Shown: one piece after another, positions 6,181-6,272 of the stretch
How positions within the stretch are numbered: position 1 is the stretch's first letter
How the letters are laid out: every line of letters begins with the position of its first letter
Origin: Patescibacteria group bacterium
GTDB taxonomy: Bacteria; Patescibacteriota; Minisyncoccia; Phycocordibacterales; UBA12079
Reading direction: 5' to 3'
Assembly (NCBI GenBank): GCA_034661035.1
Contig: JAYEKM010000008.1
Span: 11,677-75,676 of the forward strand
Length of the DNA stretch: 64,000 nucleotides
The notes under the pieces: generated by a model
Database searches by the model: none
What the model was told of the DNA's origin: nothing
The model's input: only the letters and a program-made list of their open reading frames with translations
Made by a program: the position numbers and the translations under genes

Positions 6181-6272
6181 GGTTCAAATCCTGTATCGCC
6201 ACTGCAAAATCAAAAGCCCAAAGCAATAGCTTTGGGCTTAAGATTTTGTGGGCGATACAGGATTTGAACCTG
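6181..6272. repeat. about 92-bp near-perfect palindrome (43-bp arms) whose right arm is the 3' T-arm/acceptor end of tRNA-Val
   Basis: + strand ggttcaaatcctgtatcgcc..aaagcccaaagc | gctttgggctt..ggcgatacaggatttgaacc. The inner part forms a terminator-like hairpin. Confidence 0.6.

Follow-up and report, generated by a model that had tools for sequence, protein, structure and literature searches.

A palindrome formed by the 3′ end of a tRNA-Val gene, a terminator-like hairpin and an inverted tRNA copy in a Patescibacteria genome

Partial copies of tRNA genes situated beside tRNA genes are routinely taken as integration scars or as island boundaries. The present work concerns a copy of this kind that is inverted and forms a long palindrome with the 3′ end of its own gene, tRNA-Val(GAC), in a stretch of 64,000 nucleotides (nt) from a Patescibacteria group bacterium (contig JAYEKM010000008.1; the whole stretch is referred to below as the window). 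The explanation favoured here, with moderate confidence, is that the palindrome is a terminator, that a template-switch inverted duplication lengthened its arms into the tRNA gene, and that concerted evolution has kept these arms matched.

Among the described structures closest to this one, intrinsic terminators share the sequence features and the position of the palindrome core (6205–6248), and many such palindromes lie between genes of the window; however, ordinary terminators stop at their A/U tracts, whereas here the helix runs 20 bp further into the tRNA gene. The distal repeats of Escherichia coli tyrT, in which the last ~19 nt of tRNA-Tyr are present in each 178-bp unit, are likewise partial copies of a tRNA 3′ end located just downstream of the gene and before the terminator, but they are direct tandem repeats and include no inverted copies making a palindrome with the gene. 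The attL and attR sites of tyrosine integrases are similar in the partial duplicate reaching from the T arm to the 3′ end, in their presence/absence polymorphism and in the possible displaced old 3′ end beside the downstream gene; in contrast, the copy considered here is inverted and lies 44–50 nt away, the "element" of ~205 bp is devoid of an integrase, and three tRNAs are involved, with cognate repeats. The RNase III leader–trailer helices of rRNA operons also unite the end region of a mature RNA with flanking transcript in a long duplex, whereas the duplex predicted here would consume part of the mature tRNA, and only after read-through of the terminator. Finally, template switching in replication creates perfect reverse-complement stems and fixes their pairing (PMC8794818), and its homogenisation and expansion of inverted-repeat arms is described in PMC13100816; stems can be both created and repaired by one process. 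The structure described here fits such products in its exact reverse-complement copy of the flank beside an existing hairpin and in its concerted arms (PMC8794818; PMC13100816). It is unusual among them in that one arm is a segment of an essential tRNA, which would make the process one-sided, and in that it recurs at three tRNAs in one clade, together with direct copies and inserted modules.

Relatives were reached through homologues of the DUF389 membrane protein encoded beside the tRNA genes (80–84% identity), and contigs with conserved synteny were compared with the window; labels such as L002, L119 and L136 denote the fetched contigs or loci. The nearest database relatives of the window were metagenome-assembled genomes of Patescibacteria (Candidate Phyla Radiation). 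The locus most often referred to below, L139, is GCA_018401295.1, and L139 and L140 represent one different genome, seen in two other assemblies. A genome collection queried with the DUF389 protein gave a single Patescibacteria match (L002), without synteny and without tRNAs.

The palindrome and its terminator core

The tRNA-Val(GAC) gene is on the minus strand, a detail absent from the preliminary description of this locus, and does not encode CCA. Its last ~22 nt (6248–6270) constitute one arm of the palindrome, and the outer, exactly matched part of this arm spans the 3′ part of the T stem, the T loop and the 3′ strand of the acceptor stem (Table 1). The initial observation that the 3′ end of the gene recurs in inverted orientation downstream was confirmed: the 20-mer GGTTCAAATCCTGTATCGCC (tRNA nt 52–71) was found exactly twice in the 64 kb, at 6251–6270 (minus strand) and 6181–6200 (plus strand), and beyond 6200 the homology is extended to 6203 by the letters AC, one C of the tRNA having been lost. 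The number of matches to this 20-mer expected by chance was 0.00 (100 shuffles, 3 mismatches permitted), and a third copy of the arm was not found in the window even at 3 mismatches. The copy is a 20/20 reverse complement of neighbouring sequence across the terminator hairpin, a relation expected of a template-switch product.

The inner hairpin, with an 11-bp core stem and a 4-nt loop within 6205–6248, also stood as first reported. As single-stranded DNA, 6181–6270 was predicted to form one hairpin of ~40 pairs with two small internal loops (−42.8 kcal/mol, z = −13.8). The near-perfect palindrome initially proposed was thereby retained, and its extent, given as 6181–6272 with 43-bp arms, was reduced to 6181–6270 with ~40 paired positions. 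The outer and inner arms are separated by a non-matching junction of 3/5 nt (CAC vs ACTGC). The independent Logan assembly of SRR26901924, the contig of which ends within the tRNA, contained the same sequence base for base; this identity and the homologous structure in L139/L140 rule out an assembly artefact.

Judged by its sequence, the palindrome core has all the features of a bidirectional intrinsic terminator. The stem at 6214–6239 includes 6 GC pairs among its 11 bp, both strands pass a terminator scan, and the tails are TTGATTTTGC on the minus strand and AAGATTTTGT on the plus strand. On the tRNA strand, the hairpin begins 1 nt past the 3′ end of tRNA-Val, and L139 keeps the stem with one compensated pair relative to the window (C:G to T:A). 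Thus, where a terminator or a processing structure had been suggested at the outset, the terminator is the part borne out at this level by a textbook core. Ten perfect palindromes, mostly intergenic and with each arm 12 nt or longer, were found in the window as against ~0.35 expected from Markov simulations, indicating that long palindromic terminators are the norm in this genome. The unusually long perfect palindromes, with arms of 17–25 nt (5257–5291, 13188–13227, 20831–20871, 25541–25596 and 60248–60294), are mostly located at gene ends and are apparently bidirectional terminators with A/T tracts paired over their full length. A perfect 35-bp palindrome (8963–8997; 17-nt arms, CTACACTTCCGGAGGTC c GACCTCCGGAAGTGTAG) is situated within the TsaD open reading frame (ORF; 8232–9476), where it codes for part of a Gly/Ser/Pro-rich insert (..YTSGGPTSGSVE..).

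Folding of the transcripts gave two different outcomes. The minimum-energy fold of a precursor cut at the U-tract was the cloverleaf followed by the terminator hairpin (−51.8 kcal/mol), and the read-through RNA folded as one long hairpin consuming the T arm and the 3′ strand of the acceptor stem (−82.2 kcal/mol, z = −10.4). Since the inverted copy lies past the U-tract, it would be transcribed only on read-through. On normal termination the copy would never be transcribed and the tRNA would fold normally; on read-through the copy would pair with the T arm and the acceptor strand in a duplex of ~40 bp, the read-through tRNA would be inactivated, and the duplex would probably be a substrate of RNase III.

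Self-copies at other tRNA genes of the clade

Each tRNA was compared against its own flanks in a search for self-copies. Inverted copies of the own 3′ end scored 11–20 at 5 of the 17 tRNAs of the lineage set, and two further tRNAs scored 9. The background set consisted of 274 tRNAs in 120 unrelated loci having the same tRNA-Val arm; these loci were obtained by scanning metagenomes with the tRNA-Val 3′ 27-mer, belonged to very diverse organisms, included no close relative and served only as background. Two of the 274 background tRNAs scored at least 10, both in a real convergent tRNA-Met/tRNA-Val pair (L119). The inverted 3′ copies in the lineage set involved three different tRNAs, namely, tRNA-Val in the window (20/20) and in L139, tRNA-Glu in L136 (15/16) and in L146, and tRNA-Ser in L151; weaker copies were present downstream of tRNA-Ser in L141 and L146. 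The scored copies all began 47–70 nt downstream of their tRNA gene. Folding revealed a graded series, in which the outer stem of the terminator takes in 3–4 nt of the tRNA in the case of tRNA-Glu of L139 and L141, 9–12 nt in the case of tRNA-Ser of L141 and L146, and ~21–22 nt in the case of tRNA-Val of the window and L139, tRNA-Glu of L146 and tRNA-Ser of L151; at tRNA-Glu of L146 the arms are perfect and contiguous over 25 nt. The recurrence of self-copying at several tRNAs in relatives points to a local DNA-copying process rather than to a scar of virus integration. No description of such a pattern of tRNA self-copies in Patescibacteria was found in the literature.

Direct copies of tRNA 5′ ends accompany the inverted copies. 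Many of these tRNAs, tRNA-Val and tRNA-Ser of the window among them, have their first 11–23 nt directly copied at a distance of 96–185 nt upstream. The copy at tRNA-Val comprises nt 1–15 (14/15), a GC-rich hairpin insert of 37 nt and nt 16–25 (9/10). In the leader of tRNA-Ser, the inverted copy corresponds to nt 6–21 (6684–6699, 15/16), and the hairpin module, GAAAAGCAAACTGCTTTGCTTTTC, is conserved. The entire leader of ~125 nt (6620–6745) ahead of tRNA-Ser (6746–6833) is conserved in L141, L151 and L146 and absent from L136 and L139. In the latter two, the conserved tRNA-Ser promoter is located directly ahead of the gene; in the window, L141, L151 and L146, it is located ahead of the 5′ copy, and the real gene follows ~125 nt further.

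The copies were found to track their own tRNA. At position 57, in the T loop, tRNA-Val has A in the window and L147 and G elsewhere, and the inverted copy fits its own tRNA at this position (A/A in the window, G/G in L139), which is one site only. The 5′ copies of tRNA-Ser fit their own tRNA in four genomes, both at nt 5–6 (GT, GT, AT, AC) and at nt 16 (T, T, A, A), and are orthologous because all of them have a derived difference at nt 19.

Several smaller observations concern the same regions. A promoter-like site (TTGTAA, 18 nt, TATAAT; 6473–6444) is situated directly upstream of the partial 5′ copy of tRNA-Val; L141 and L151 have instead a copy of tRNA-Val nt 1–11 within a perfect hairpin (GTGAGGGGC GGTTA GCCCCTCAC). 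Hairpins of the CCGAC...GTCGG type occur only twice in the 64 kb (0.02 expected), at 6143–6165 and 6382–6397. Both adjoin fragments of tRNA-Val (the first, the inverted 3′ copy; the second, inside the 5′ partial copy), and the two resemble one another in opposite orientation; the idea that they represent split-tRNA leaders was rejected, as the acceptor strands do not match. The motif AGCGAAGCGA was found four times within 270 bp of L139 (2648–2916); all four occurrences are hairpin loops, and the stems differ from one to the next. The observation extends to L140, L146 and L136. The motif contains GCGAAGC, an exceptionally stable DNA mini-hairpin. The module GGAT-AAAAACAAACTGCTTTGTTTTT-ATCCG recurs beside the 5′ copies of tRNA-Ser and tRNA-Glu and inside an insert of L139. 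The sequence of tRNA-Ser itself differs in L139, where it shares 95% identity with tRNA-Val in the T arm.

The matched copies might also be accounted for by selection at the level of RNA, the copy acting on transcripts that escape termination by extending the helix to ~40 bp. Such a device would block maturation of the read-through tRNA, create an RNase III site and uncouple the mRNA further downstream from the strong promoter of the tRNA, or, alternatively, it would constitute a stronger, exonuclease-resistant terminator. The strong preference of the read-through RNA for the long hairpin over the cloverleaf is consistent with this proposal, as are the recurrence of the arrangement at three tRNAs with a constant spacing of 47–70 nt, the co-variation of the copy with the tRNA together with its conservation above the neutral level, and the extra hairpin that interrupts the copies of L139 and L146 at the same place, between the complements of the acceptor strand and the T stem. 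However, the U-tract precedes the copy, so that the copy cannot itself aid termination; five lineages do without the palindrome, their tRNA-Val running straight into the promoter; and L139 and L136 retain displaced copies that no longer face a live tRNA end. In addition, C·A mismatches on the tRNA strand were no rarer than G·U ones in the imperfect copies, which, over few sites, gives no strand-specific signature. A selected RNA device is regarded as unlikely.

The block between tRNA-Val and the DUF389 gene

The genes flanking the locus encode FtsA, FtsZ, thioredoxin reductase, the DUF389 membrane protein, a GNAT acetyltransferase and TsaD, and the order on the minus strand is tRNA-Glu, tRNA-Val, palindrome and DUF389 gene. 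In all syntenic contigs, tRNA-Val(GAC) was located upstream of the DUF389 gene on the same strand. In L136, L141, L144 and L151 the DUF389 start lies 41–47 nt past tRNA-Val and the promoter begins within 0–10 nt, and in L147–150 a similar promoter and a CYTH gene come directly after a tRNA whose 3′ arm is identical to that of the window. The spacer between tRNA-Val and the DUF389 gene amounts to 246 nt in the window and 531 nt in L139. It includes, between tRNA-Val and the promoter, a block of ~205 bp that contains the palindrome and was found in two of the seven related lineages (the window and L139), being absent from L136, L141, L144, L151 and L147. In the tree based on DUF389 and TrxB, the window grouped with L147 in 200/200 bootstraps and not with L139; the closest relative of the window is thus without the block, which is indel-polymorphic and patchy in that its two carriers are not sisters. 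A palindrome conserved among relatives without indels, the finding named in the preliminary description as contrary to its proposal, was looked for in these lineages and not observed, the block being present in only two of the seven.

Table 1. Features of the tRNA-Val locus in the window (nt, nucleotide number within the tRNA; B1–B3, conserved blocks).
Feature	Position	Strand	Remarks
DUF389 promoter (TTGCGC, 16 nt, TATAAT)	6011–6038	minus	Read from sequence; conserved in every relative
Possible decayed displaced tRNA 3′ end, TAATCTTGTATTCCGAG	6047–6063	minus	Between B1 and promoter
Block B1, GATTAGGTCACTCTCATGGATATTTAT	6059–6085		20/21 identical to L139
Variable hairpin between B1 and B2	6086–6105		Loop unrelated between genomes
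Block B2, ATAAATATCTCATTCCCTTGACCTCCACTC	6106–6135		27/30 identical to L139
GC-rich hairpin, GGCTGT..CCGAC..GTCGG..ACAGCC	6136–6178		Adjoins inverted copy
Inverted copy of tRNA-Val 3′ end (block B3)	6181–6203	plus	Exact over 20 nt, 6181–6200
Predicted bidirectional intrinsic terminator	6205–6248	both	A-tract, GC-rich 11-bp stem, 4-nt loop, T-tract
Inner inverted repeat	6205–6224/6229–6248		Core stem 6214–6224/6229–6239, 11 bp, 4-nt loop
tRNA-Val(GAC) gene	6248–6321	minus	ARAGORN; Rfam tRNA model 69.9 bits
Gene-borne outer arm (tRNA nt 52–71)	6251–6270	minus	20/20 complementary to 6181–6200
Partial direct copy of tRNA-Val 5′ end	6366–6431	minus	~96 nt upstream of gene
tRNA-Ser leader	6620–6699	plus	Exact direct copy of nt 1–18 (6620–6637), hairpin module, inverted copy
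Flanks of the ~205-bp block, ATCGCCCAC and TTTGCGCAG			Their direct joining would mark an empty site

The DUF389 promoter ends 9 nt ahead of the ATG (5999–6001); the same distance of 9 nt between the −10 box and the ATG was observed in the window and all relatives, implying a leaderless or nearly leaderless mRNA. Gene content beside the tRNA cluster varies by lineage, as is evident from the differing neighbours (CYTH in L147, a methyltransferase in L139). In the window, the segment from tRNA-Ser to TsaD (7117–8235) contains the GNAT acetyltransferase gene and an ORF of 136 aa without a Pfam match, and in L136 tRNA-Glu is only ~190 nt from TsaD. The divergent tRNA-Glu/tRNA-Ser pair is inverted as a unit in L136, L141 and L151 relative to the window, L139 and L146, which places the breakpoints at both tRNA 3′ ends.

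The promoter-proximal ~205 nt of L139 were homologous to the window and included the same terminator, the inverted piece of tRNA-Val and blocks B1 and B2; the inverted copy (B3) was 19/22 identical to its L139 ortholog. As a neutral reference, the four-fold degenerate sites of the adjacent gene were 55% identical between the window and L139. The two genomes had unrelated hairpins between their conserved blocks, and the GC-rich hairpin at 6136–6178 was lineage-specific, an unrelated AT-rich hairpin occupying the same place in L139 (8/45 identity). Block B1 was also detected in L151, where it adjoins a 3′ repeat of tRNA-Ser. No Rfam match was obtained for B1 or B2; Rfam searches of 5 kb and, with permissive thresholds, of 231 nt returned only tRNAs and generic miRNA-like hairpin noise. 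Derivation of B1 and B2 from tRNA-Val or tRNA-Ser was considered and rejected, the similarities being not above chance.

The collinear arrangement of B1, B2 and B3 on one side of a bidirectional terminator would suit the remnant of a convergent plus-strand gene, namely, a tRNA-Val duplicate that was inverted and has decayed, or else a small RNA (B1–B2–B3) with a tRNA-like 3′ end. The real convergent tRNA pair of L119 gives a similar signal, and the G·T at the foot of the stem formed by B1 and B2 would be a wobble pair on the plus strand only. However, no cloverleaf is possible (there is no 5′ acceptor strand, and the T stem is represented by 2 bp only), no promoter-like site was found on the plus strand upstream of B1, and the chance-level similarity of B1 and B2 to tRNA-Val also argues against a decayed duplicate. 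ARAGORN with introns allowed and thresholds of 85% or 70% gave low-scoring, inconsistent calls, and Rfam gave none. Likewise, neither ARAGORN (default and relaxed) nor the Rfam tRNA model detected a credible plus-strand tRNA at 6030–6210, and a hidden, intron-containing or split tRNA on this strand was rejected on the basis of the inconsistent low-grade calls obtained with introns and relaxed thresholds. A convergent gene remnant is considered highly improbable.

Searches for mobile elements were conducted in the window and in viral contigs. No integrase, recombinase or transposase was encoded among the 26 ORFs from 34 to 34898, all of which had housekeeping or transport functions, and no mobile-element genes were present within ~28 kb. 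In viral contigs, the 20-mer arm matched only inside phage-encoded tRNA-Val genes. The B1 14-mer gave 120 chance matches, ~25 of which had 18–20 nt in common with B1 owing to the phage protein motif ALGHSHGL, and B2 was not near any of these B1-like matches. The integrase origin raised initially was thus not supported, there being no integrase in the ORFs surveyed, no further occurrence of the arm within the window and no viral occurrence of the arm outside phage tRNA-Val genes. The structure departs from an integrase att scar in the strict sense in that the exact 20-mer is inverted and not direct and no integrase accompanies the insert of ~205 bp, although one feature of such scars, the existence of occupied and empty sites among relatives, was observed for the ~205-bp block. 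The broader suggestion of a recombination scar fared unevenly: it agrees with the indel-polymorphic block and with an apparent decayed 3′ end, and it disagrees with the inversion of the exact copy and the absence of an integrase. The decayed 3′ end is clearer in L139, where the homologous position contains CGAATCCTATTTCCACCCCAC (22/2000 shuffles as good); the candidate in the window retains only AATCTTGTAT (9/10), which is not significant alone (310/2000 shuffles as good).

Two further apparent insertions were identified in the relatives. At tRNA-Ser, L151 and L136 form a clean filled/empty pair, in which L151 has a 152-nt insert that ends in B1 and is delimited by 19 nt of the tRNA-Ser 3′ end in exact direct repeat. 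In L139, a second, nested insert of ~290 bp in tRNA-Val split the old palindrome from the live tRNA-Val and brought a new inverted copy 26 nt past the gene. Both tRNA-Glu and tRNA-Ser of L146 show, in this order, a direct repeat, a hairpin, an inverted copy and a second direct repeat.

These insertions raise the possibility of a miniature tRNA-targeting cassette, be it a mobile element of the non-autonomous kind or an integrative element reduced to a collapsed remnant. According to this explanation, ~150–300 bp would enter the T-loop/3′ end, a related kind would enter the D-loop, a target duplication of 13–23 nt would keep the gene intact, and the palindrome would be the left end of the cassette, composed of the terminator and an inverted copy of the target. 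It is favoured by the L151/L136 pair with its exact repeat, the same B1 abutting a possible decayed tRNA T-loop in the window and L139; by the same layout of the nested insert of L139 and by that of the L146 tRNAs; by the tRNA-Ser promoter, which precedes the gene in L136 and L139 and the 5′ copy in four other genomes; and by the patchy block, absent from the nearest relative of the window and containing segments better conserved than neutral sites. Nevertheless, no integrase or transposase is nearby, the window contains B1 only once, and 273 fetched loci yielded no true copy of either B1 or B2 beyond this locus. The repeats are cognate to each tRNA, so that one element cannot carry them, and to our knowledge target duplications of 18–23 bp match no known bacterial transposase. 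Moreover, the hairpins between the conserved blocks are unrelated across genomes, which is unexpected for a recently moved element, and the tight junctions are equally explicable as losses via recombination between direct repeats. A cassette of this kind is possible, though on balance unlikely. It is somewhat more doubtful still that the tRNA genes of the clade are recurrent targets of an undescribed process or element, which would introduce hairpin-rich cassettes of 100–300 bp into the D- or T-loop and regenerate the gene, leaving a cognate direct repeat of 13–23 nt and an inverted copy that makes a palindrome with the live tRNA end, the copies thereafter staying matched to the tRNA, and which would be a new miniature mobile element or a selected read-through trap.

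Origin of the distal arm and its significance

According to the template-switch explanation, 6205–6248 would be the Rho-independent bidirectional terminator of the tRNA-Glu/tRNA-Val unit, insulating the downstream DUF389 gene, and the outer arms would not represent a second functional element. The distal arm (6181–6203) would be an inverted duplicate, made at the level of DNA, of the neighbouring tRNA 3′ end: replication may have switched template at the terminator hairpin, the nascent strand folding back and copying itself. Since the tRNA arm would be frozen by selection, only the distal arm would change, and it would keep tracking the tRNA. The ~205-bp indel-polymorphic block would have been inserted between the tRNA and the DUF389 promoter, with displacement of the original tRNA 3′ end. 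In favour of this explanation are the terminator features of the core, the recurrence of inverted copies at other tRNAs and the graded depth of their stems, the agreement of each copy with its own tRNA, the absence of mobile-element genes within ~28 kb and the documented action of template switching. The anatomy of the palindrome, its terminator features, the distribution of the block, the recurrence, the co-variation and the lack of an integrase are observations, whereas the origin by template switching and the consequences for RNA are inferred.

Several points weigh against this explanation. No relative was found with the terminator and without the inverted copy, the relatives having either the whole block or none of it. 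The non-matching 3/5-nt junction is common to the window and L139 (ACGAC), so the extension of the arms was not seamless. In all well-preserved instances, the tRNA end is also directly repeated at a point further downstream, hairpins lying in between, and this layout looks more like a bounded insertion cassette than like mere lengthening of the arms. The identity of B1, B2 and the copy (86–95%) is far above the neutral 55%, a comparison of sequences that suggests selection on something in the block. It should also be noted that the window and L139 are not sister lineages, so the block requires several losses or more than one gain.

If the template-switch explanation is true, the locus would be a clean natural case of a palindrome growing into, and co-evolving with, an essential RNA gene, in the setting of a reduced genome whose DNA-repair capacity is thought to be limited, and it would show how a single step can give rise to terminators and long hairpins. 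The signature usually attributed to integration is present here without an integrase, and annotation pipelines could therefore mis-call genomic islands in these lineages. If, instead, the cassette or the read-through trap is the true explanation, a new mechanism would be acting on the tRNA genes of the Candidate Phyla Radiation.

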